DNA from: a virus
Length of the DNA stretch: 45,332 nucleotides
Virus record (IMG/VR): IMGVR_UViG_3300045988_041884
Reading direction: 5' to 3' (one strand)
Positions 2,285 through 45,332 of this stretch are shown one piece after another. Positions within the stretch are counted from its first letter, which is position 1; every line of letters begins with the position of its first letter. The notes beneath the pieces are model-generated. The model was not told the origin of the DNA. It did not search any database and saw nothing but the letters and a program-made list of their open reading frames with translations. The position numbers and the translations under genes are program-made.

Positions 2285-2316
2285 TAAAAAAAGAGCCTTA
2301 GACAGTTCGTCTAAGA
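2285..2316 (-). terminator. Strong rho-independent terminator after the HTH gene 2340..2546
   Basis: Minus strand reads CTTAGAC-gaact-GTCTAAG followed by gctcTTTTTTTATTTT. Confidence 0.75.
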
Positions 2317-2339
2317 CCCATATAAGTATCTGAAAAGTA

Positions 2340-2546
2340 TCAGCACACTTTGATTATTTTATTATTCACCCTCCGGCTTAATCGTTTCACCGTGGACATG
2401 CTCACGTTCATCTGCTCTGCGCAGTATTCAAGAGTGCGTTCCTGACATCTCAGCCGAAACAGCTTTTCTTCGTCCGGTGTAAAATTACACTCTGTCAAGA
2501 ACCTGTCTATATCTTTCTTAGTGAACACATATAACTTCATGAGCAT
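2340..2546 (-). CDS. Small sigma-70 region-4 / LuxR(GerE)-type HTH protein
   Basis: The 68-aa sequence contains FTPDEEKLFRLRCQERTLEYCAEQMNVSMSTVKRLSRRVNNKI, the typical r4/LuxR helix-turn-helix layout. It is followed by a terminator. Confidence 0.65.
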   Translation of the reverse strand: MLMKLYVFTKKDIDRFLTECNFTPDEEKLFRLRCQERTLEYCAEQMNVSMSTVKRLSRRVNNKIIKVC

Positions 2547-2866: not shown

Positions 2867-3249
2867 TTGCTCTCCTTTTCCCAGTAGTATACCGGGATCT
2901 CATTACCACTATCCCATGTATCGTAATATTTGCCGTTCTGTACCGTCACCACATGACCATCTATGCAGAGAATGTATGTGCCTGTCGGATGGTCTGTGCA
3001 AAAGTCGTTGACTGTATAGATATATCGTTCTGATTGTTCAATCAGTTTACGTCTGTACCCACGTTTATAGAGGTACGCTCCCCAGACATAATTTGCGCTT
3101 GGCATATCTGATAGAGCGCACGCCTGTATCATTAATCCGGCAAATACCGTTTCCCAGTCAAAACCGGTTGCTTTACATATTGCCCGGACAACGCAATCTC
3201 CGACTCGATTCCCGGCAGGATTCGGATTGTAATATTCCCATCTATTCAT
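2863..3249 (-). CDS. Putative papain-fold (Cys/His) peptidase-like protein
   Basis: Track ORF, start coupled to the MuF stop. Candidate catalytic residues are in RVGDCVVRAI and IDGHVVTV. The fold assignment is inference. Confidence 0.6.
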   Translation of the reverse strand: MNRWEYYNPNPAGNRVGDCVVRAICKATGFDWETVFAGLMIQACALSDMPSANYVWGAYLYKRGYRRKLIEQSERYIYTVNDFCTDHPTGTYILCIDGHVVTVQNGKYYDTWDSGNEIPVYYWEKESK

Positions 3250-4493
3250 CAGTCAATCCCCTTTGCTGTTTTATATCGTTTCGCCGCTCCTCTGGCTTTT
3301 GCGGCGTTCTGGCGGTTCCACTTCGCAATCATGAGCCTGTCTTGCAGTTCCCTCAGGTCGTTCTGCTTGCAGTAATCTTTGTATGCAGCATTTTGTTTCT
3401 GTAAAAGATAAGACTTCCGGTCAAGATCTTGTTGTAATGCGAATTTTGCCTTTTCATTCGGTGCATTGTCGACTCCTGTTTGTAGCCCAAAGACTTCACG
3501 CTTCGTTTTACGGATTCTCCGCTCATAAGTACGTTGTCTCTGTTCTTTTTCGTACTGCTTGCCTTTGTCGGCTTTATCCTGTGCTGATAATTCTGCATAA
3601 GGATTAAATTCCCCGTCACTGGCTCCAAAACTATGCCGACAGTTGACCCCTGACAGTCCACTTGCTGTCCCGTATCCGGTCAATGAAAAAGGCGGAAATT
3701 TCTTACTCTTGCCAGAACGAGAGTATATCTTGCCTTGCCACCATGAGTGATTTCCGGGATTCTCGCCGCCATCACCCGTTCTGGCTCCTATGTGAGCACT
3801 GACTAGAATTAAATCCCAGTCCATTTCTTCCATGCGTTTTAGGGATATATCTCCCGTAGCCTGTGCCACACCAGTTCTGACAGAACGTGCAACTGCGGTT
3901 TCAATTGTATCGCGTCTTTTCTTTCCTGTCTCTTTGTTTATGTATTCAACATATACGCCATCACTCACAACGTTATTGACCGCCTCTTTGATGGCTTGTG
4001 TATACCCAACCGCCCCAGTCATCACATGATTATATGCAAGGTCGCATTGCTCAATATAGAGCCTTTGAGCGGCACTTGCGGTTGTTCTTGTAAAGTTTTT
4101 CCACTCGCCCATAGTCGCAAGCATATTCCGCTCCATGAGTCTTATCATAGTTGGGGATTGTTCGAGCGGTACAGGGCTTAATCCCGCCGCCTTATATACC
4201 TTGTCATCATAGTTCATTGCAGTGATTCCGGCATCTTCGAACGCTTCAAGAAGTTCCTGCTGTTCACGTTTGGTGTATCTGGATAATTCTGCAAGAATGT
4301 CCTCTAGCAGTTCGCCAGATTCTTGCAGTGTTCTGATTCTCCATGCATCAGCATTGGTCAGAATATAATCTTCACCTCTACCAATTCTTGCCATCATTCT
4401 CGACACGATTTCAGAGATGATATACTGATGCAGTTCTTCAGCGATCTGTTCACTGCCCTCTGTTATCCGGCGTAAATATTCTGGACTAAGCAT
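3249..4493 (-). CDS. Head morphogenesis protein, phage Mu F / SPP1 gp7-like, with basic coiled-coil C-terminus
   Basis: AGAGGTGA lies 6 nt upstream of the ATG. Motifs GENPGNHSWWQGKIYS and VNCRHS, and the position after the portal region. Confidence 0.8.
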   Translation of the reverse strand: MLSPEYLRRITEGSEQIAEELHQYIISEIVSRMMARIGRGEDYILTNADAWRIRTLQESGELLEDILAELSRYTKREQQELLEAFEDAGITAMNYDDKVYKAAGLSPVPLEQSPTMIRLMERNMLATMGEWKNFTRTTASAAQRLYIEQCDLAYNHVMTGAVGYTQAIKEAVNNVVSDGVYVEYINKETGKKRRDTIETAVARSVRTGVAQATGDISLKRMEEMDWDLILVSAHIGARTGDGGENPGNHSWWQGKIYSRSGKSKKFPPFSLTGYGTASGLSGVNCRHSFGASDGEFNPYAELSAQDKADKGKQYEKEQRQRTYERRIRKTKREVFGLQTGVDNAPNEKAKFALQQDLDRKSYLLQKQNAAYKDYCKQNDLRELQDRLMIAKWNRQNAAKARGAAKRYKTAKGID

Positions 4494-4533
4494 AGTATAT
4501 CACCTCTTTCGATAAATGTTGTGGTACATGTTT
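4494..4533 (-). promoter_or_regulatory. Copy S3 of the conserved promoter-like element (16-mer + 18 nt + TGaTATACT)
   Basis: Minus strand reads AAACATGTACCACAAC atttatcgaaagaggtga TATACT. The hexamer abuts ATG 4493. Confidence 0.55.
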
Positions 4534-4575
4534 TGAAAATATGCTACAATCAACCTATTAAGGAGGTGTCGCAAA

Positions 4576-4722
4576 ATGTTTTTAAAACTGAAAATTTATT
4601 GCACTTGTAATTGCAACTATTACGTAAATGAACAAATTAACACGGAAAAGATAATTTGTCCAAACTGTGGCAAAGAGCATCCGTCTTCATCACAAATTAT
4701 ATCTATGCCCCTCTTTAGTTAA
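4576..4722 (+). CDS. 48-aa zinc-ribbon micro-protein on the opposite strand (not in the ORF track)
   Basis: AAGGAGGTG lies 7 nt upstream of ATG 4576. An extended -10 TGcTACAAT is at 4542-4550. Translation: MFLKLKIYCTCNCNYYVNEQINTEKIICPNCGKEHPSSSQIISMPLFS (CxCxC ... CxxC). Confidence 0.5.
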   Translation: MFLKLKIYCTCNCNYYVNEQINTEKIICPNCGKEHPSSSQIISMPLFS

Positions 4723-4750: not shown

Positions 4751-6196
4751 TTAATTTGAACGTTTTTCATTATTCCATGCAAAAACTTTCCATCCTTTAA
4801 CTCCATTATGATTTGTTATTGGAATAATCGGTGCAGAATTTCCATTAAAAATTAATTCAACAGTTTCGTTCGTAGACAGATTATCAGTTGAAATACCATG
4901 ACTAAAATAACAATTATGAATATTTATGTAAGAAGTCGTTTTATCATCTGAGTTATGACCATGCCATCCAATATCTTTTCCATGATCTGTTTGAAAATAA
5001 CAATTAGATACTTCGACATTTGGATGTAAACCAGTTCCAGCACCAATGCATTTTCTTAAGCCTATTGCGGTATCGTAATCATCTGTTACCGTGTTATGAA
5101 ACATACGCAAGTTATGATATTTTGTTCTATACGGGATAGGACTACTGCTTGCTTCTTCGTGCACGCAATAAACCAAATGATTAGCGATAAATATTCCATC
5201 ATGTAATTCATAACTTTGTGCTTTTCGCCATAAACCAAATATTGAAGAATTATTTATTACATTACTATCTGAGCTTATTCCAGTGCCTATAATCGTTGAA
5301 CCATTAAAGAAATATCTGCAATTTCCACCAATCGGTAGTTCATAGGCAGTCACTTTACCATATTTTGTCTTAATTAATTCAAAAATAGTGCTAAACTCAT
5401 ATACTCCATATTCCCAATAAACATCACAGTTTCCTTTGTTACATGCATCATACAATTTCAAATAGATTTTTTCTTCTGTGTCTGAAGCGTAAATATTCAC
5501 CAATTCTCTTACATTTTCAGAATATTTTCCATAATCAGTATACGATAAAATTTTATCGCTCTGATAAAGCATAAAAGGTAAAGTATCATTCCACACACAA
5601 ATTCTTATGTATTTTGCATCTTCATTCAAATCAATTGGGTTTAAAGAATTAAATGTATCTGTATAAGCTAATTTATTTCCAGTAGAGTCATATTGAGCCA
5701 GTGACTGATATAATTCTGTAGTTACTCTTAACTTAATTGATGGATTAACATTAATAAGTTCTGATGTACTTCTGGTTGATAAACCATCAATAACTTCCCC
5801 ATTAGAACCAATAACCTTTCCTGTTTTGAGTTTATTCGGATTCAACATATTTATTGTATTTTTTATTTGCAAAATATTATTATACAAAATATTAGAATCA
5901 TCTAAATCTTCCTTTAGCGAACCAGTTTCCTTTTTCAGCGAAGCAATATCCGTCTTGTTCTGATCAATCTGCTGCGCCTGTTCTGTCGTGGCTCCAGGCT
6001 TGACCGGATTCTTTTCAAGGTACTCATTTACTGCGGCCTTGATTTCTTCCGGTGAGATTTCCCCGCCTATTCCTTTCAAACATAATTCGTATAAATACTT
6101 CTCTTTTCGTGTGATTGGCTTCGGGAGTTCACCCTTGTAATCGCCTGTCAAGTACGCAAGATATTTTTCTTCTCTGGTTACTGGTTTATCTGCCAT
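4751..6196 (-). CDS. AT-rich gene: EKYL-repeat N-terminus, coiled coil, C-terminal beta-helix-like (pectate-lyase-fold-like) region; fibre/depolymerase-like
   Basis: Track ORF with an RBS GGAGAGGAG. N-terminal TREEKYLAYLTGDY...TRKEKYLYELC. C-terminal HNCYF/NCYFQTDHGKDIGWHGHN repeats. Visibly lower GC than the flanking genes. Confidence 0.7.
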   Translation of the reverse strand: MADKPVTREEKYLAYLTGDYKGELPKPITRKEKYLYELCLKGIGGEISPEEIKAAVNEYLEKNPVKPGATTEQAQQIDQNKTDIASLKKETGSLKEDLDDSNILYNNILQIKNTINMLNPNKLKTGKVIGSNGEVIDGLSTRSTSELINVNPSIKLRVTTELYQSLAQYDSTGNKLAYTDTFNSLNPIDLNEDAKYIRICVWNDTLPFMLYQSDKILSYTDYGKYSENVRELVNIYASDTEEKIYLKLYDACNKGNCDVYWEYGVYEFSTIFELIKTKYGKVTAYELPIGGNCRYFFNGSTIIGTGISSDSNVINNSSIFGLWRKAQSYELHDGIFIANHLVYCVHEEASSSPIPYRTKYHNLRMFHNTVTDDYDTAIGLRKCIGAGTGLHPNVEVSNCYFQTDHGKDIGWHGHNSDDKTTSYINIHNCYFSHGISTDNLSTNETVELIFNGNSAPIIPITNHNGVKGWKVFAWNNEKRSN

Positions 6197-7646: not shown

Positions 7647-7904
7647 TTAGTCGTCCTCAAATTCTATCCAGTCAGCGGGAACTTCTAGGATTTTTCCATC
7701 CATGTTTACAAGTGCGAGTGTTGATAACATTGAGCCTAACTCATATCCTCCGCATTTCCCTTCTTCACCAGTAAGAAATTCTTTATATTTTAAGAATATT
7801 GCACTCTTAGAAACACTCATTCTTATAATGATTTCCTGCCCATTTGAAACTATTTTATTTTCTATCGTATCATTTGGATTCGTAACAAAACATTTTTTTC
7901 TCAT
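7647..7904 (-). CDS. Hypothetical protein (85 aa)
   Basis: Track ORF 7647..7931. The start ATG 7904 overlaps the terminase stop (TAATG). Confidence 0.6.
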   Translation of the reverse strand: MRKKCFVTNPNDTIENKIVSNGQEIIIRMSVSKSAIFLKYKEFLTGEEGKCGGYELGSMLSTLALVNMDGKILEVPADWIEFEDD

Positions 7905-9541
7905 TATGCACTGTTCCCCCTTCTTCTCCACAATGACTCTGAACCATACCGAACAGAATCTATCAAATGATTATCCTTATCCGGATATCCGCTGCAAATA
8001 TTTCCGTCTTTGTCGCGTTCGTATTCGTACTTCTTGAACTCCTTGCAAGCATTTGGCGTTCTTTTTGGATCAAACACAAGCTTTCTTCTTTGCAGCCACT
8101 TCATAGAATACTCAATGCTTCCCGGTCCTTTAATTGCTCCCCTTGCTGGAAGTCCTAAGTCTCTGTAATCATTGATTGATTTAGGCTCGGCAGAATCGCA
8201 AGTAATTTCGTAATCGTCGTACTGTCTTCGCTTAATTTCATTTGCAGTCCATTCATTTGATTTTTTGTTTTCATAAATCTCGTCAATGAAATAAATTGTT
8301 TCTCTGGCTGAATCATAATAGATTCTGGAGAACGCATATTTATCCGGATACCAACCCCAGTCAACCCCCTGATAAATTCTATCAAAACGGCTGATTTCTT
8401 CGTCTGTGATAGTTCTTTCTTCGATGTATTCAAAGATATTTCCACCATTTCCGTTAGCGTGTCCAAGGTACTCATTGTCGTAAGCGTCTGGATTTACTTC
8501 TTTTAGATGTTCGGCATCTGCGAGAAATACGTCACCAAGCCACTCCTGTTCAATTCCTAAGTCGAGGTACGTACTGTGCACAACCATCACATTTTCATCT
8601 TTTTCTTCTGCTTCTGCCGTGTACTCATTTGCCCAGTTATTCTTACTTCTAGGTGGGTTAAATGATTTGAATTTATATGCTTCATTACCACCACGAATAG
8701 CAGACTGCTGAATGTTTCGGATTTCTTCTGGATTAGAAAACTGATCCAACTCCTCGAACCAGACTATTCCGATATATCCGAATTCTGGCTTGATAGACTT
8801 AATCTTTAATGGATCGTCAGCACCACGAAAGTAAATCTTCTGTCCAGTGGGCTTATACGTAATCTCCATGGGAGATACCTTGCACGTAAATTCCTCGTTT
8901 AGATCCAATTTATCAATAGCCCATTTCATCTGAGCATAAACAGAGTCTTTGATAGTATTTCCGACTTTTCGCAGAATCAGAGCGTGCATATTCGGATTAT
9001 TCTTCAGCAGTTCCGGTATAATCAGCGATATGGTCGAAGATTTCATGGAACCACGTCCGCCAGGGAGAATGTATTCGCTATGTTTCTTTGCTCGAATATC
9101 CCTAATCATTTTATGGAATACATCCGGGACAATATTCAGATCAATATGGTACTCACTTTGTAATCTGGCTTTTTCTTCTGCTTTCCGCTGTTCTTCTCTG
9201 GCTTCTTTTATGGCAAGCGTTTTTTCCAGATCATTCATAGATTTGAGCTGATCGGAGAAGTCTGGAGCAAATCCGAATGAATCAGTCAGCTCACCTCTTG
9301 CGATCATAGAACGGCGTTGCTGAATTTCTGCCAGTGACATGATGTCAGTGCCTTTTTGTTTTTCAATTAAGGACTGCTTTTCGGCTATATATGCAGAAAT
9401 ACAACCTTTTTCCAACAGTTTTTTTGTCGCGTTTCTAACGATTCCATCAGAGTATCCAGCTTTTCTTGCGGCGTCAGATGCATTCCCGCCATTCTTTATA
9501 TATTCAAGTGCAAACGCTTCCTGCTTAGGCGTTAAGTTCAT
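7904..9541 (-). CDS. Terminase: small-subunit-like HTH N-terminus fused to a PBSX-type large subunit
   Basis: Residues 1-~130, LTPKQEAFALEYIKNGGNASDAARKAGYS plus a coiled coil, give a TerS (Terminase_2-like) signature. They are followed by Walker A GGRGSMKSS and a TerL-length body. One uninterrupted 545-aa ORF. Confidence 0.85.
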   Translation of the reverse strand: MNLTPKQEAFALEYIKNGGNASDAARKAGYSDGIVRNATKKLLEKGCISAYIAEKQSLIEKQKGTDIMSLAEIQQRRSMIARGELTDSFGFAPDFSDQLKSMNDLEKTLAIKEAREEQRKAEEKARLQSEYHIDLNIVPDVFHKMIRDIRAKKHSEYILPGGRGSMKSSTISLIIPELLKNNPNMHALILRKVGNTIKDSVYAQMKWAIDKLDLNEEFTCKVSPMEITYKPTGQKIYFRGADDPLKIKSIKPEFGYIGIVWFEELDQFSNPEEIRNIQQSAIRGGNEAYKFKSFNPPRSKNNWANEYTAEAEEKDENVMVVHSTYLDLGIEQEWLGDVFLADAEHLKEVNPDAYDNEYLGHANGNGGNIFEYIEERTITDEEISRFDRIYQGVDWGWYPDKYAFSRIYYDSARETIYFIDEIYENKKSNEWTANEIKRRQYDDYEITCDSAEPKSINDYRDLGLPARGAIKGPGSIEYSMKWLQRRKLVFDPKRTPNACKEFKKYEYERDKDGNICSGYPDKDNHLIDSVRYGSESLWRRRGNSA

Positions 9542-9819
9542 CTAATCACCTCTGTCCATCCTCGTTTTCTGACTGCCTCCCATATTTCTTTTAGGCACAT
9601 GACCACATCATACTGGGATACAGTTCGTAATATTTCATAATCGCAATCTTTCCATTCACCACGCTTTGTTGGTCTAAACACTGGTGTTGAAATAATTGTT
9701 ACTGTTATCAATCGCTCCTGCTCGCGGCTGTAGAATTGCGATGTTCCGATTTTTATGATTAATCCGGTGGATAATATAGCTTTTTGAAGTTTTCTTGTAA
9801 CTGCTTTTAAGTTCGCCAT
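9538..9819 (-). CDS. Hypothetical protein, first gene of the packaging operon
   Basis: Track ORF. GAGGTGA lies upstream of the ATG. The stop forms an ATGA overlap with the terminase start. Confidence 0.7.
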   Translation of the reverse strand: MANLKAVTRKLQKAILSTGLIIKIGTSQFYSREQERLITVTIISTPVFRPTKRGEWKDCDYEILRTVSQYDVVMCLKEIWEAVRKRGWTEVIR

Positions 9820-9870: not shown

Positions 9871-9910
9871 ATTCTATCACAGGTCAGTAGAAAAGTTGTG
9901 GTACATGTTT
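9871..9910 (-). promoter_or_regulatory. Copy S2 of the conserved promoter-like element (16-mer + 18 nt + TGaTAGAAT)
   Basis: Minus strand reads AAACATGTACCACAAC ttttctactgacctgtga TAGAAT. It sits directly after a terminator and about 50 nt upstream of ATG 9819. Confidence 0.65.
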
Positions 9911-9924
9911 GAGGAATTTTGCGT

Positions 9925-9952
9925 TAAAAAAGAGCCGGTAAATACCGACTCT
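9925..9952 (-). terminator. Rho-independent terminator ending the early operon
   Basis: Minus strand reads AGAGTCGG-tattta-CCGGCTCT (one mismatch) followed by TTTTTT. Confidence 0.7.
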
Positions 9953-9958
9953 CTAATT

Positions 9959-12240: not shown

Positions 12241-12555
12241 TTATTCATCCTCCCACACTCCCAACAACCGCATTCTCTCATACAGTACAGCGACGGTCTT
12301 GCGTCTGTATCCGTAGAAGTCTTTCGGGTTCATCGGGATATATCTTTCTTTGCTGATTCTCCTATAGCTTTTCCGGTGTAGGATATTCTCAATAACCATA
12401 TCCGCTATCACCGTGTTCTTCGGGCAAGCTGACAAGGCAGCACTGGAAAGCAGGTATCCGTACTCTGCCGGGAAGTCTTTCAGCATCGTATTCAGTTTTT
12501 CTATATCCTCTGCCGGAATACCGTAGTCTTTCAGCTTTTTATTCCTTGTCAGCAT
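12241..12555 (-). CDS. Hypothetical 104-aa protein; a late-regulator candidate by position only
   Basis: Track ORF 12241..12642. AAAGGAG lies upstream of internal ATG 12555 (MLTRNKKLKDYGIP). The region upstream of that ATG is occupied by a micro-ORF. Confidence 0.55.
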   Translation of the reverse strand: MLTRNKKLKDYGIPAEDIEKLNTMLKDFPAEYGYLLSSAALSACPKNTVIADMVIENILHRKSYRRISKERYIPMNPKDFYGYRRKTVAVLYERMRLLGVWEDE

Positions 12556-12842: not shown

Positions 12843-13169
12843 TTAATCCTCCTTATATGGTTCTGGAAGTGGCAACCAGGCTATGACCTTCCAATACGAC
12901 CTAGCACCAGTTAAGTCCCATCGTTTCAATTTGCTTTGAAATTTTGCGTAGGTTGAATGATATATTCTTCCGTCCATGCAAGTCACTTGATACGTACCGC
13001 TTGCTTCCGGCAATCTCTCACTGACCGGAATCCAGTTAGTAGCTTTTAAACGCTCAATAACTTTCTTCTGTTCTTCTTCCGTTTCACAATGTATTACAAC
13101 GTCATAGGTATCATCGTATGCACTAAATGCACCATCTTCATTCTGAACAAGTGTCATTCCATCGCTCAT
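12843..13169 (-). CDS. DUF551-like phage protein
   Basis: WIPVSERLPE ... IAWLPLPEPYK pattern. GAGGAGGTGG RBS and ATGA coupling. Confidence 0.7.
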   Translation of the reverse strand: MSDGMTLVQNEDGAFSAYDDTYDVVIHCETEEEQKKVIERLKATNWIPVSERLPEASGTYQVTCMDGRIYHSTYAKFQSKLKRWDLTGARSYWKVIAWLPLPEPYKED

Positions 13170-13671
13170 ACTTCCACCTCCTCAGTCTTTATGAATGCCA
13201 TCCAGTGCGTTTTTCCCTGTTTACCAGATCTATTACCATATAAGGGATCTACTCCGATAGCTGCAATTACATCCTTTACAGGTATTTGTACTTCGTTCCA
13301 TTTAAAAATCAATGTGCCATAGGGCTTTAATACACGCATACACTCAGAAAAGCCATCATGCAGTACCTGTTTCCATGTGTTCTTATTAAGCTTTCCGTAT
13401 TTTTTACCATCCATGAATTATCTCCGCCCTGAATGAGATGTGGTGGATCAAACACAACATGATAGAAAGTATTGTCCTCAAATGGAAGTTTCGTAAAATC
13501 TGCTATAATGTCAGGGTGGATATTGCAGTACCTTGTAGCATGCCCATTTCCACTTTTCCATATTGCTTCACAGTCCAATTCGCGCTTATCCACAAAAACA
13601 GCTAACTCATTATTTTTGTTGAACCAAATCATTCTTGAACCACAAGTAGCGTCCAATACGAGCTTATTCAT
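13166..13671 (-). CDS. Small SAM-dependent (DPPH motif) DNA methyltransferase split by a frameshift at an A6 run
   Basis: Track ORFs 13327..13686 (LDATCGSRMIWF ... VVFDPPHLIQGGDNSWMV) and 13166..13414 (KKYGKLNKNTWKQ ... LKPYGTLIFKWNE) overlap in different frames. The switch point is AAAAAA at 13400-13405. Confidence 0.65.
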
Positions 13672-29517: not shown

Positions 29518-32500
29518 TACTGTAATCTCCTTTCTAACTCTTTGATGTGTTTTTCTTGCTCATCGACCTTTGCACTAAGTTCCTGTATGGCCTTAATGGC
29601 ATAATTGAGGAGGTACGGACTGTTAATCTGTTTAATGTCCATCTCGCCGTTTTCGTCATAACCGCCACCTAACGCCAAGTTCGGGTCGATTTCTTCCAGT
29701 TCGTCCGCTACGAAACCGATGTTTTGATGCCCACCTTTTTTCCAGTCGAACTGTCGGACTTTCATGCGATTGACTGTTTCGAGGGCGTCTGTTTCACTGT
29801 TTTTAACGTTCTCTTTTAAGCGGATGTCGGAAGCCTGTGTGCTTGTATATAGATAGTCTGTGCTAAAGTAAGATCCGCCCCATTTAGCACGGATTCCTAA
29901 ACGATTGCGCGTCATTGTTTCTCCGTAATCACTGCCTGTTCCCGAAGAAAGATAGGCCACTTGCGAACCATCTGCGCTTATGGACGCTACTGGCTGTCTT
30001 TTGACTTTGTTGGATGTTTTTGATTGATTCTCCAAGTCGTAAAACATAAGGGTTCCATCAGTTGAAAAATTCTTCCCAAGTTCGCATCCATCCGTAAAAA
30101 GTGAGTTCGTGTTTATTCGGACTTTATTTTTTAAATAGCGAATGATATATCCGTCCCACGTGTGGTTAGTTCCTTCCTCCCAAAGCTCTTCAACTTTATT
30201 TTGAACATTCTGTGCGTACAATCCGTACTTCCCGAGTATCAGCGCATTATAGTTATCTGAATCCGTATAGTTCGTATATAGTCGCAATCCGACAGTATTG
30301 AGAGATACCATTGGATTCCCAGTGTTTTTATTAAGTACGACATATCCGGTATATCCTAATCTCGATATCAGATTTCCGTCAGCATCGTAAATTTTCAGCT
30401 GACCGTTTCCGTTATTCACACCGCCAAGGATAATAGTACCACCTTTCATGGCGTTGAATGAAATATACAGCGTCTGGTTTCCGCTTTCGTCCTTGCCGTA
30501 ATATAGCCCCTTGAACTTTCCGCCGTCTGACAGGATATCAACTATCTGTTCCTGTGTCAGTGCTGCTACATCAATCGCAACCGCATACGTCTGCTGTTCA
30601 GCCAATTTCGTCTTTGACTGGTCAAAGTACAGCGAAACTCTAAGCATGTCGTGTGCACTAAGAGATAAATTATCTACATTTATTTTAAGCCTATCCAGAG
30701 CTGCCGATTGCGATACTGTCAAGGCTGTCCATGTAGATCCATTATTCGTGGATTTTTCAAGTTTCCACCAGCCGGACTGACTATGACTTAATGCGCTACT
30801 GCCGTCTCTGTAGTAAGAATCTACGATAAGCGGAGATGGCGTTATCTTCTTATCTGCTCCCATCAGCAAAATATCAGCATTTGACTGGAAAAAATAAGTC
30901 CTTCCAGGCTCTCCCTGTTCACCTTTTGTTTTTATCCAGGTATATTTCGCTGGTTCTGTGCTGTCTGGTTTTGTATAATCTGTATAATTTCCAATGTATT
31001 CTTTATCAACGCTGTCATCTACAGAGAAATCTTTTTTACCATCCGCACTGTTGGCATAAGCGATATGGAAATACGGCGTTTTACCATCTGCTCCCGGTTT
31101 ACCCGGAAGTCCATCTGATCCGTTTGCACCTTTTACTAGCGTCCATCTGTATTTCGCCGGATCTGTGCTGTCTGGCTCTTCAAAATCCACATACATACCA
31201 ATATATTCGCGGTTGCTGTCCGATACAGAGAAATCCTTTTTGCCATCTGCACTGTTGGCGTATGCAAGGTGTGTATATTGTGTCTTTCCATCTTTGCCGT
31301 CTTTTCCGGGGATGCCGTTCGCTCCATCTTTGCCGTCGTAGCCATCAACGCCACGGAACCGGCTCCATATATAGTCTGCTGGATTGGTACTTTCTGTAGC
31401 CGTGTCCTTATTCGTTGCGATGCCGATATAGGTTGCCTGTGTCACCGTATAGATTTGCTCTCCGGCACTGTCCAGAATCGGGATACCGGTGGAGTCCAGT
31501 AACTTCACATAATCGGGGTTGTCTGACATGTCGAGACCGTCTGGTCTTGTAGCGTATTTCATCCACGTGTAAGAAGATTTTCCGTCTGCTCCTTTCGGTC
31601 CCTGTACGCCTTGGTCGCCCTCGAATTTCGCCCACGTGTACTTGCTCGGGTCGGTGCTGTCAACACCGGAAAAGTCCGTATAAGTTCCGATATACTTGCT
31701 TGGTGTCTTACTCATCTGCGCCGCTGTCGGGTTCTGTACCGGTGCGTACCGGATGTGCAGATACGTTGTCTTTCCGTTAGTTCCAATGCCCGGGATTCCC
31801 TGCGGCCCGGCGTACTGTTTCGCAAGTGAGAACTGTTTTGATACGACAAGGTTATTCAGATATGCTGCCTTAATGTTCACCCATCCGCTGTCTGCGGTCA
31901 GCCCGGTAACAGTGTACGTCTTAGTTTCCTTATTCCAATTTCCCTGTATGTTCTGCGACGTTGTAATCGTGTACGTACAGTTATCCGTGATATCCTGTGT
32001 GCCGTACATGACGGTCGCCGTTGTGGTACACTCCGGGAACTCTGTATAGTTACCGTTGCTGTCAACTGGGATGCCTTGATAGTCGTTATCAAGCTGCATG
32101 GTCATGTTTCTAGCTAGGGACACTGCATTCTCAACATCATCAAGTTTTTCGCTAAGGGCCTTTCCACCGATAGTCACACAGCTTCCGTCAAGGGTAACTG
32201 ATCCTGTATCCATATCCGCCTCAAATATCACATCTCCGCTCTTATCTCTTACAATGAGCGTTCCTGCGTTGATATAGTCGGCATTGATGCCCTCTGCGTA
32301 GAGCAGTCTGGTTATTAATTCACCAGTCACTGCAAAGCCGTAAGGATACGTTTTTCCGCCATCAATCGACACAGCAAACGCTTCCGCTGTCAGTTTCCAG
32401 ATGATGTTAGATTCCGCCACGGTTGCTTTGTTGTGCATGTAGTATATGATACTACCGTCCTGCTGCGGCTTCTGCGTCATATATAGACCACTAGAAGATT

Positions 32501-37064: not shown

Positions 37065-37637
37065 CTATTTGAGGTTCAACATCTCATTCAGCGCATCCTT
37101 ATACGCTTGCTCTTCTTCGCTGAGACGTGTTTTTATATCAATAATGTTCTTGTTTTCTTGATAGAATTTCTTTTCCCATTTGTCGAGCTTTTCACCCTTT
37201 GCCTTTTTTGACCGGATTCCAACTACGGTATTAAAAAGGCACTCGCCGGATTCCATAAAATATCCGAAAAACGTCCACCAGTGCATATAAGGCACTGCTC
37301 TGATTTCTTTGCCAGCAACCTTGTTTACAGCCGGCACGATCATGTCTCCGTCTTGTTCCCAGTCCATCAAACGGGGCTTTGGGTGGTTCGGGTTATCGTC
37401 CAACTGCCCGCAGTCGATGAACTCCGATGCTTTCTGGCAAGCTTCGTCCCAGCACTCAGACGGTATGCTTTGCCAGTCCTCAAACAGAATCTGCAACATA
37501 ACAACTGCTTTCGCCTGCTCGTCCAGTTCTGGGTCATTCATGGCTATGAGAATATCAATAATCGCTCGAAAATCGGTTCTAATAGAAAAATCCACCCCAC
37601 TTATATTGAGTGAGGTGGGAAGCTCATAGGCGGTCAT
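37065..37637 (-). CDS. Phage Gp15-family protein (tail assembly)
   Basis: MTAYELPTSLNISGVDFSIRTDFRAIIDIL pattern, and the position before the tape measure gene. Confidence 0.65.
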   Translation of the reverse strand: MTAYELPTSLNISGVDFSIRTDFRAIIDILIAMNDPELDEQAKAVVMLQILFEDWQSIPSECWDEACQKASEFIDCGQLDDNPNHPKPRLMDWEQDGDMIVPAVNKVAGKEIRAVPYMHWWTFFGYFMESGECLFNTVVGIRSKKAKGEKLDKWEKKFYQENKNIIDIKTRLSEEEQAYKDALNEMLNLK

Positions 37638-43787: not shown

Positions 43788-44423
43788 TCACTGGAATAAC
43801 TGGATATTCTGAGCGATTGCAGCCTGTCTCTCGGACGGGTCTTTGATTGCTTCGATATCTTTCTTTGTCATGCTTCCCGGTGTCTGCTGATGTCCAATCC
43901 GCGATGTTGCAAATCTCGCCTGTTGCTGCTGGGCCTGCTGCTGACTTTCATCTACAAATGTATCAGGTTCATCCTGTTTCATCTGTTCAAGCAAATCATT
44001 AAGTCCAAGAATCTTTCCGTCCTTAAGCTTAAGACCAGCTGATTTGATATCAGCAGTAACAGATCTTTTAGCTGCTGGAGACGAAAACTTAACATCATCG
44101 AGTGCCGCTTTCAGAGCATCTGAGAAATCACGGTCGTAAATTTTTGCATTGAATTCTTTCTCTGCATCTGCCGCTTTCTGCTTCCAAGTCTCTAACTCGG
44201 TCTTGACATTTGCCGGGTCGATACCGTCAAAACTTTTTAAAGTTTCTTCTGCTGTCTCAGCACGTTCTTTCCAGTCGTCGCGCTCTCCCTCGACTTTTGA
44301 CAGAGTTTTTGCTACTTCCTTTGCATTTTTGTAATTCTCAGAAAGTGCTTTCTTTACATCTGCCTGCTTATCCTCAGGGATTTCAATTCCAAATGATTTT
44401 AATGTGTCAATAAGCTTCTGCAT
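43788..44423 (-). CDS. Scaffolding protein (GP20-like)
   Basis: CAGGAGGA lies 6 nt upstream of ATG 44423. Helical, charged and Q-rich. The track's longer version runs through the tRNA-like element. Confidence 0.75.
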   Translation of the reverse strand: MQKLIDTLKSFGIEIPEDKQADVKKALSENYKNAKEVAKTLSKVEGERDDWKERAETAEETLKSFDGIDPANVKTELETWKQKAADAEKEFNAKIYDRDFSDALKAALDDVKFSSPAAKRSVTADIKSAGLKLKDGKILGLNDLLEQMKQDEPDTFVDESQQQAQQQQARFATSRIGHQQTPGSMTKKDIEAIKDPSERQAAIAQNIQLFQ

Positions 44424-44501: not shown

Positions 44502-44569
44502 TCGGAATGGCAGGAATCGAACCTGCGGCACGTAGTTTATACATTGCTCTGCCACTGAGCTACATTCCA
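44502..44569 (-). tRNA. tRNA-like element: canonical acceptor, D and T arms but an anticodon arm 3-4 nt too short
   Basis: Minus strand reads TGGAATG TA GCTC AGTGGCA GAGC A ATGTATAAACTAC GTGCC GCAGG TTCGATT CCTGC CATTCCG A. The acceptor has 7 bp (U1.G72). The T arm is perfect. No 7-nt anticodon loop can be drawn. Confidence 0.5.
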
Positions 44570-44802
44570 TTAACCCGGATTCCCGGGTTAGCAAGGTGTT
44601 TAACGTGTCATGCCTGCCACGAGTTGTTTCGGGCATCCGTCCGCCCATTTACCTTTTACAAGGAGGTGCGCACTGTCTATGTGAGTGAGCAAGTCATATA
44701 GACAGTAATGGCACGTGTCGGAAATTGCATCCGCTTTTCAACCTCCAGATTCCGCCCGAATCTGTTTCTGTTAAGGACACGCACCCGTGAAAGGAGGAAT
44801 CA

Positions 44803-44856
44803 ATGAAAAAATGTCTATGTCAAGTGGCGGCAACCACTTACGAATCTTCCCTATGA
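44803..44856 (+). CDS. 17-aa plus-strand micro-ORF, antisense to the S1 transcript start (speculative)
   Basis: GAAAGGAGG lies 5 nt upstream of ATG 44803. Translation: MKKCLCQVAATTYESSL. The SD may simply be the complement of an anti-SD on the minus RNA. Confidence 0.2.
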   Translation: MKKCLCQVAATTYESSL

Positions 44857-44860
44857 ATAT

Positions 44861-44900
44861 ATTTTACCACAAAGTATCCAAAAAGTTGTGGTACATGTTT
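44861..44900 (-). promoter_or_regulatory. Copy S1 of the conserved promoter-like element (16-mer + 18 nt + TGgTAAAAT)
   Basis: Minus strand reads AAACATGTACCACAAC tttttggatactttgtgg TAAAAT, immediately after the stop at 44908. Confidence 0.65.
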
Positions 44901-45277: not shown

Positions 45278-45332
45278 CCACGCATCTCATCAAGGACAGT
45301 GTTGTAGTACTCTACTTTCTTATCCCAGTACT
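45278..45332. repeat. Second copy of the 55-bp terminal repeat
   Basis: Identical to bases 1-55. Confidence 0.95.

Follow-up and report, generated by a model that had tools for sequence, protein, structure and literature searches.

A 16-bp box paired with extended -10 elements marks a probable family of late promoters in a human-gut phage lineage

The late promoters of the phages Mu (activated by Mor/C), P2 (Ogr) and lactococcal TP901-1 (Alp) depend on an activator, have a poor or absent -35 element, and carry the activator site overlapping or abutting the -35 position. Several such late promoters are found per genome in Mu and P2, the Mor/C sites being dyads and Ogr a zinc-finger protein. 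In T4 middle promoters, a MotA box of about 9 bp is centered near -30, about 12 bp from a sigma-70 -10 element, and is used through the AsiA-mediated process known as "sigma appropriation". Firmicutes reportedly possess sigma-A promoters with an extended -10 or "-16 region" (TRTGn), as described by Voskuil and Chambliss in 1998. In temperate phages of Gram-positive bacteria, the late activators known as Ltr (RinA/ArpU/LtrA-C) act on the promoters of terS (PMC3753634, PMC3152322). Ltr sites consist of two to four 7-nt direct repeats that together form a block right beyond the ltr gene, and a single terS promoter serves the whole late operon (PMC3753634).

The window, i.e., the whole stretch of DNA that was analyzed, spans 45,332 bp with 42% G+C and nearly all of its genes on the minus strand. 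Its ends share a 55-bp terminal direct repeat (1-55 and 45278-45332), which makes it a circularly closed assembly of ca. 45.28 kb and probably a complete phage genome. No close annotated phage was found in GenBank or INPHARED, where two short "Bacteriophage sp." fragments match at ca. 89%, nor did we find a cultured or annotated relative. Our literature searches on the motif described below and on RAGATH-21 RNA returned nothing relevant.

A pattern search of the whole window recovered three exact copies of AAACATGTACCACAAC, all on the minus strand (4518-4533, 9895-9910, and 44885-44900), and no further copies with up to three mismatches; none of 100 dinucleotide shuffles yielded three matches. 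Read directly, each box is followed by an 18-nt spacer and a TGnTAnAnT element. The hexamers are TAAAAT (S1), TAGAAT (S2) and TATACT (S3), preceded by GTGG, GTGA and GTGA, respectively, and in each case followed by AT. The original prediction had claimed exactly this, i.e., a 16-mer identical in three copies, a constant 18-nt spacer, GTG(A/G) ahead of the hexamer and AT behind it, and all of these elements could be read at all three sites. Its further claim that a TTGACA-like -35 is lacking holds too, as only 0-3 of the 6 positions match at spacings of 16-18 nt. The predicted promoter elements are as follows:

44885-44900, minus strand: S1 box, exact match, predicted -46 to -31
44861-44869, minus strand: S1 extended -10 (TGgTAAAAT), predicted start at A 44854
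9895-9910, minus strand: S2 box, exact match, predicted -46 to -31
9871-9879, minus strand: S2 extended -10 (TGaTAGAAT), predicted start at A 9864, 34 distinct alleles
4518-4533, minus strand: S3 box, exact match, with A14G and C4T tolerated in relatives
4494-4502, minus strand: S3 extended -10 (TGaTATACT), predicted start at A 4487, within codon 3 of the MuF gene

In this numbering, the TG lies at -15/-14 and the seventh nucleotide past the hexamer is an A at all three sites. The full TRTG (-17 to -14) is present at S1 and S2, including their TGTG and TATG alleles, and both read TGTGnTAnAAT in the window. The TGn, the TAnnnT and the purine 7 nt further on are those of the Firmicute TRTGn promoters, which, however, ordinarily lack an invariant 16-bp upstream box. 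The combination of a host-type -10, a phage box in the place of the -35, a phage protein as the proposed reader and several genomic copies resembles the T4 middle promoters. The T4 design nevertheless differs from the one seen here, where the box extends from -46 to -31 and stands 18 bp from the -10. Moreover, T4 middle promoters require the AsiA co-factor, which remodels sigma region 4, and T4 itself is lytic and infects a Gram-negative host.

Compared in pairs, the three sites agree at all 16 positions of the box, whereas their surroundings resemble one another no more than random sequences would, with 9-12 of 40 identical positions upstream, 7-9 of 18 within the spacer and 10-14 of 40 downstream. 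This designates the box as a short functional element rather than part of a duplicated segment, and a segmental duplication or the ends of a mobile element can be ruled out as its origin. A relaxed scan of the window found no degenerate fourth site with a -10 at 17-19 nt, and an 11-mer match at 32030 was rejected, as it sits within a 1409-aa gene and has no -10. The box contains the palindrome ACATGT, ends in AAC, and has no internal 7-nt repeat.

The palindrome, together with the overlap between the S3 box and a divergent -35 region (see below), might be taken to mean that the 16-mer serves some end other than promoter activity, e.g., as a repressor operator, as a packaging or recombination site, or as an element of an RNA leader. 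We regard this as highly improbable. All copies are oriented with the late genes and keep a fixed 17-19 nt to TGnTAnnnT across otherwise unrelated spacers, and there is no complete promoter for a repressor to block. With its location ahead of the predicted starts and, at S2, directly past a terminator, the box is unlikely to be transcribed at all. An RNA-structure reading of the three 40-mers was rejected, since they fold no better than their shuffles (z = -1.6, +0.3, and 0.0) and have no fold in common. A model of the lambda-Q type, in which the box would be a Q-binding element and the hexamer a pause signal, was likewise discarded, as no consistent promoter precedes the boxes and S2 abuts a terminator.

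The features around S2 suggest what such promoters would transcribe:

9929-9954, minus strand: intrinsic terminator closing the early operon (-15.1 kcal/mol, z = -5.3, U6; 0 of 200 shuffles fold as well)
7904-9819, minus strand: first genes of the S2 unit, i.e., a 93-aa protein (9538-9819) and the terminase (7904-9541), then the portal
2293-2319, minus strand: intrinsic terminator closing the S2/S3 unit, past a 68-aa gene (-15.6 kcal/mol, z = -5.7, U7)

Only 18 nt separate the early-operon terminator from the S2 box, and the leader from the predicted start to the ATG at 9819 measures 45 nt. The homologue of the window terminase in L293 matched Pfam terminase families. The placement claimed for S2, directly past the terminator of the early operon and ahead of the packaging operon, is borne out by the strong fold of that terminator. 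In relatives, the site is always found between the terminator of the gene for a 117-aa protein (hereafter p117) and the terminase, even where the latter is only 39-57% identical. From S2, transcription would proceed through the terminase, portal and MuF genes to the 68-aa protein (p68), and would end at the terminator past its gene. The location recalls the Ltr systems, whose recognition site is likewise found between the terminator of the early operon and the terminase genes. Within this operon, between the portal and MuF, a 481-aa gene (4751-6196, minus strand) has no family match; N-terminally, its product carries repeats (TREEKYL...), and the C-terminal portion looks possibly beta-helix-like by eye. 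In relatives, the same slot holds enzymes that Pfam describes as pectate-lyase-like, polysaccharide-deacetylase or GDSL-lipase, or it is empty, which makes it a variable cargo slot inside the packaging operon.

The exact 16-mer occurs in at least 119 IMG/VR stretches, and its occurrences sort into classes that are tied to gene modules: S1, S2, S3 (directly before MuF) and a further class, C4, located before an operon of tail-chaperone and tape-measure-like genes. Across hundreds of related gut-phage contigs, what is kept within the classes is the box, the T-rich start of the spacer, TGTGr/TGn, the first, second and sixth positions of the hexamer (T1, A2, T6), the 18-nt distance, and the purine at the seventh nucleotide, while the centers of the spacers vary and the downstream modules diverge among relatives. 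Across 55 S3, 34 S2 and 33 S1 distinct alleles, T1, A2 and T6 are invariant and only positions 3-5 vary. The TG is present in classes S1-S3 and C4 and also with a second box type (B) described below, and the single alleles with 17- or 19-nt spacers fit normal promoter tolerance. A few box occurrences in unrelated contigs have no -10 and look like chance or coding matches. The earlier proposal of a phage-specific promoter family, with the 16-bp box standing in for the -35, is thereby strengthened: a scan of related phages had been named beforehand as a possible refutation, and it found the motif and its spacing conserved between diverged spacers and modules. The lineage is very common in human-gut viromes, and the box offers a ready marker for its late transcription units.

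Bacterial genomes, by comparison, hardly contain the motif. Searching one genome per species in 185,579 species for the box, N18 and TANNNT gave nine matches, of which four are class-C4 sites in Blautia/Ruminococcus, one, on a short contig labelled Prevotella, is a variant C4 site, and the remaining four are chance-like; the first five all reside in mobile elements of a single class. Being this scarce in host genomes outside mobile elements, the box does not look like the motif of a host regulon. Additional site classes (O1-O4) were dismissed as artefacts, since the pattern used in the genome scan itself required TANNNT.

A second form of the box provides what is the strongest computational argument for its function. 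The type-A box is GTACCACAAC and the type-B box is GTCACCTC; the latter belongs to a sister lineage, in which mAACATGTCACCTC occupies the two equivalent sites, i.e., terminase and scaffold/RAGATH-21. Upstream of the terminase operon, box-B phages have cAACATGTCACCTCrG, 18 nt, and TGaTATGAT. The second copy in one of them, L330, reads AAACATGTCACCTCAT, 17 nt, and TGaTAGAAT, and is immediately followed by a RAGATH-21 RNA, by tRNA genes and by the scaffold gene. An IMG/VR search for the second form gave mostly chance matches, only L309 and L330 being relevant. Both sites of L330 carry the same altered 3' half of the box, with AACATGT and the geometry kept. Recognition of the box by a phage protein acting in trans would be expected to leave just such a concerted change within one genome.

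Taking these observations together, we consider it likely that S1-S3 are late promoters of the sigma-A extended -10 kind that have no -35 and depend on a phage-encoded activator bound to the box, the likeliest reader being a 104-aa protein (p104). The phage would be a temperate siphovirus in which the box and a host sigma-A-type extended -10 together form each late promoter, and a phage protein made from the early operon would bind the box and recruit or stabilize the host RNA polymerase, thereby turning the late units on. Such a regulator-site pair is open to testing, and box B, as a natural specificity variant, would suit swaps. Two candidates for the reader had been put forward at the outset:

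12241-12555, minus strand: p104, 104-aa early-operon protein, pI 9.35, favored candidate reader
2340-2546, minus strand: p68, 68-aa sigma-70 region-4-like protein (weak Sigma70_r4, PHROG sigma factor, and TIGR02937 matches), last gene of the S2/S3 unit, alternative or auxiliary candidate

Each candidate regulator is carried by more than 575 IMG/VR contigs. Among box-A phages, p104 is present in 27 of 27, p68 in 45 of 45 and p117 in 27 of 27, and this invariable presence means that co-occurrence cannot discriminate between them. The Cys-rich neighbor of S2, p117, was excluded as the activator: it is an acidic protein (pI 5.5) without a DNA-binding signature, and box-B phages do not have it.

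Sequence searches with p104 in Pfam, PHROG, NCBIfam and PDB gave nothing useful. A profile search delineated a family of 268 clusters (at 50% identity) of ca. 100-aa proteins with an invariant motif, DFYxY+RK, and none of 46 family members had a relevant Pfam match. The AlphaFold model of p104 is all-helical (pLDDT 88). Its top fold matches in the PDB, none of them significant (E = 0.5-2, TM 0.42-0.58), are to region 4, the -35-binding part, of M. tuberculosis SigL and E. coli SigE, and a BFVD fold search returned family members followed by scattered weak matches labelled as sigma factors. The basic, helical p104 may thus have a fold like that of sigma region 4, and it is the protein most likely to read the box. 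Aligned by hhalign, the p104-family profile and the sigma-4-like p68 gave no alignment.

The p104 homologues of box-B phages are 61-64% identical overall, with 41-44% in residues 48-86 and 77% in residues 1-47. The reverse is seen in the P0096-type phages, which keep the type-A S3 box and have 90% identity in residues 48-86 and 45% in residues 1-47. In these P0096-type phages (L463-465, at about 12986-13420), the S2 box is replaced by a promoter region with a long inverted repeat (CGCCCTAG...CTAGGGCG) and TGgTATTAT, and a 98-aa p104 paralogue (31% identity, E = 2e-17) is encoded directly upstream of the terminase, the location that characterizes Ltr genes. Ahead of MuF, L463 and L465 retain the type-A S3 box, and L464 a form of it with two mismatches. 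Residues 48-86 of p104 thus track the type of box, and the assignment of p104 as a whole is built on two or three independent comparisons. A point that counts against p104 is that class-C4 elements with the exact box carry, in the DNA examined, only a paralogue 32% identical to it. On balance, whether p104 is the reader seems to us close to an even call, with p68 clearly less likely and some share of the probability left to other factors.

The other candidate, p68, might read the box alone, as a class II activator like GerE/LuxR, or serve as a surrogate region 4 together with the host sigma-A, in either case with positive feedback. It is the only protein of the genome with recognizable sigma-4 sequence similarity, region 4 reads -35 elements, and the box lies exactly at that position; p68 is also basic (pI 9.27) and encoded downstream of all 45 S3 sites tested. 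Yet the syntenic slot of L330 lacks it, as does all of the box-B DNA examined, where the promoter architecture and half the box are kept. Being encoded inside a box-driven late unit, p68 could not start late transcription without basal expression, and the identity of the three boxes gives no sign of a two-step cascade. We therefore hold this reading to be unlikely. Of the two regulators suggested originally, the 104-aa protein is the one that comparison favors, while the case for the sigma-r4-like protein has weakened.

A related idea is that a dedicated alternative sigma factor, of the phage or of the host, uses the 16-mer as its -35 element. The AAC at the end of the box resembles ECF-type -35 motifs, and both the weak fold matches of p104 and the HMM matches of p68 point to ECF sigma region 4. 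The -10, however, is the housekeeping extended -10 (TRTGnTAnAAT) and not the CGT motif of the ECF type, and no sigma region 2 protein was detected among the ca. 30 window proteins scanned, p68 having region 4 only. Both points make an ECF-type sigma promoter unlikely; as host genomes, their mobile elements aside, are also essentially free of the motif, we rate this explanation as very unlikely.

For the favored reading, i.e., an activator such as p104 acting with host sigma-A, the Ltr systems are the closest match, and the locus works alike without being fileable as a member. In both, the candidate or known activator is a small basic protein of the early operon (ca. 100-130 aa in Ltr systems; p104 has 104 aa and a pI of 9.35), its C-terminal part, a sigma-4-like DNA-binding domain in Ltr proteins, reads or would read the DNA and co-varies with site specificity, and late morphogenesis genes depend on it, a dependence that is proposed here. 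The differences lie in the site, the gene order and the protein family. Instead of 7-nt repeats, there is a single 16-bp box at a fixed -46 to -31, three times per genome; the ltr gene is the last early gene and adjoins its site, whereas here it is p117 that adjoins S2, with the p104 gene 2.4 kb upstream; and p104 has no Ltr-related Pfam match such as Sigma70_r4 or DUF1492. To the activators of Mu, P2 and TP901-1 we detected no sequence or fold relationship of p104, and their families and site architectures are unrelated. All in all, we see here a further instance of a regulatory design already familiar from phages and not a novel type of system.

At S3, the promoter signature meets a coding sequence. 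The relevant features are:

3249-4493, minus strand: MuF-like minor head protein (Pfam Phage_min_cap2, 9e-69, alignment from residue 2)
4542-4722, plus strand: divergent cassette with a TGcTACAAT extended -10 (4542-4550), a strong Shine-Dalgarno sequence and a 48-aa zinc-ribbon ORF (4576-4722)

The S3 extended -10 falls on the end of the MuF Shine-Dalgarno sequence (AGAGGTGA) plus the spacer behind it, and its hexamer abuts the start codon. The hexamer alleles (TATACT, TATATT, TATGCT, TACATT, TATAGT, and TACACT) vary at positions 3-5 only, and the sequence that follows is coding, with 36 of 44 variable sites in 21 distinct alleles falling in codon position 3. With a predicted start in codon 3, transcripts from S3 could not encode full-length MuF. 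The start codon itself (4491-4493, minus strand) is ATG in 11 and ATA in 10 of these alleles, despite a strong Shine-Dalgarno sequence and a coding N-terminus. An in-frame TGA two codons further upstream leaves no alternative start; an upstream start at an in-frame ATG within the box was rejected, as a TGA blocks it and the variation in the spacer is not that of coding sequence. Judging from these patterns, S3 is not behaving as a simple gene promoter, although its promoter signature is complete. The original prediction placed S3 before MuF and past an opposite-strand insert, which is correct; as a promoter of full-length MuF it fails.

We propose that MuF would be translated from S2 read-through transcripts, and that S3 would be an internal promoter of the S2 unit serving the genes behind MuF (p128, p101, and p68). 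No terminator-like fold was found between the 481-aa gene and S3. The -35 region of the plus-strand TGcTACAAT promoter overlaps the S3 box in reverse complement, and a factor bound there could thus also shut off the zinc-ribbon gene. In relatives without the zinc-ribbon cassette, a conserved hairpin (TTAACTAAAGAGGGCTTTAGTTAA) precedes S3, into which the cassette of the window was apparently inserted.

The C4 sites belong to integrative elements of ca. 16-20 kb that carry the exact 16-mer, the 18-nt spacer and TAAAAT:

Class-C4 elements: L001, L011, L016, L017, L062, L074, L082, L106, and the Blautia/Ruminococcus genomes L120, L121, L124, and L127

Past the promoter, their operon consists of a small ORF, a 137-aa gene, a Gp15-like chaperone gene whose product is 87% identical to that of the window (37065-37637), and a 1305-aa tape-measure-like gene. 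A D5-type primase-helicase gene precedes it, and the genes for the p104 paralogue, Rha and a Tn916-type integrase come after it; the about 15 of 20 kb examined revealed neither capsid nor terminase genes. The host of the window phage is probably Blautia or another member of the Lachnospiraceae; the basis of this assignment is indirect, namely the box and the tail genes, including the chaperone, that it has in common with the Blautia/Ruminococcus elements. A broader scenario combines three suppositions: that the box defines a late regulon shared across elements, with the p104 family as unrecognized Ltr-like activators; that the C4 element is a satellite that plugs a tail-length module into the late switch of a helper; and that the placement of S3 within the ribosome-binding site and start of MuF is deliberate and serves to uncouple this gene from those downstream of it. 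We offer this combination tentatively and think it rather doubtful as a whole. If the satellite reading were true, it would illustrate how mobile elements of gut Firmicutes tap the late switch of a helper phage.

S1 lies behind the 125-aa gene that ends the accessory cluster and ahead of the scaffold and capsid genes, with the following features downstream:

44710-44785, minus strand: RAGATH-21 RNA (Rfam RF03097, 92.4 bits, E = 4e-17)
44502-44569, minus strand: tRNA-like element (Rfam tRNA, 44.3 bits; anticodon arm shortened, by eye)
43788-44423, minus strand: scaffold gene, first protein gene of the S1 unit (Pfam Phage_scaffold 2.8e-22; start at 44423 by sequence reading)

ARAGORN made no tRNA call at the tRNA-like element. 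The 286-aa ORF called over the scaffold gene is over-extended, the gene starting at 44423, and ca. 440 nt of RNA genes (RAGATH-21 and the tRNA-like element) thus stretch from S1 to the scaffold start. The claim that S1 precedes the scaffold and capsid genes, past the accessory cluster, is right as to order, with these RNA genes to be added in between. The 33 distinct S1 alleles agree in TGTGr and TA.AAT and differ in the middle of the spacer. S1-type sites of relatives lie between the 125-aa gene (98-100% conserved) and the scaffold gene, with RAGATH-21 located 100-115 nt past the box in 11 of 11 relatives and followed by variable tRNA genes (Met, Gln, Asn, and Tyr). From S1, transcription would run through RAGATH-21 and the tRNA-like element into the scaffold, capsid and downstream genes. 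Given that RAGATH-21 consistently follows the S1-type box, the S1-type promoter is a candidate promoter of this orphan RNA, the first to be suggested, with RAGATH-21 beginning ca. 70 nt into the predicted transcript. Just 5' of RAGATH-21 (44790-44806, minus strand), the sense strand carries an anti-Shine-Dalgarno-like UUCCUCCUUUC, with a similar tract in the box-B phage L330; the opposite strand reads as a Shine-Dalgarno sequence followed by short ORFs antisense across the S1 promoter.
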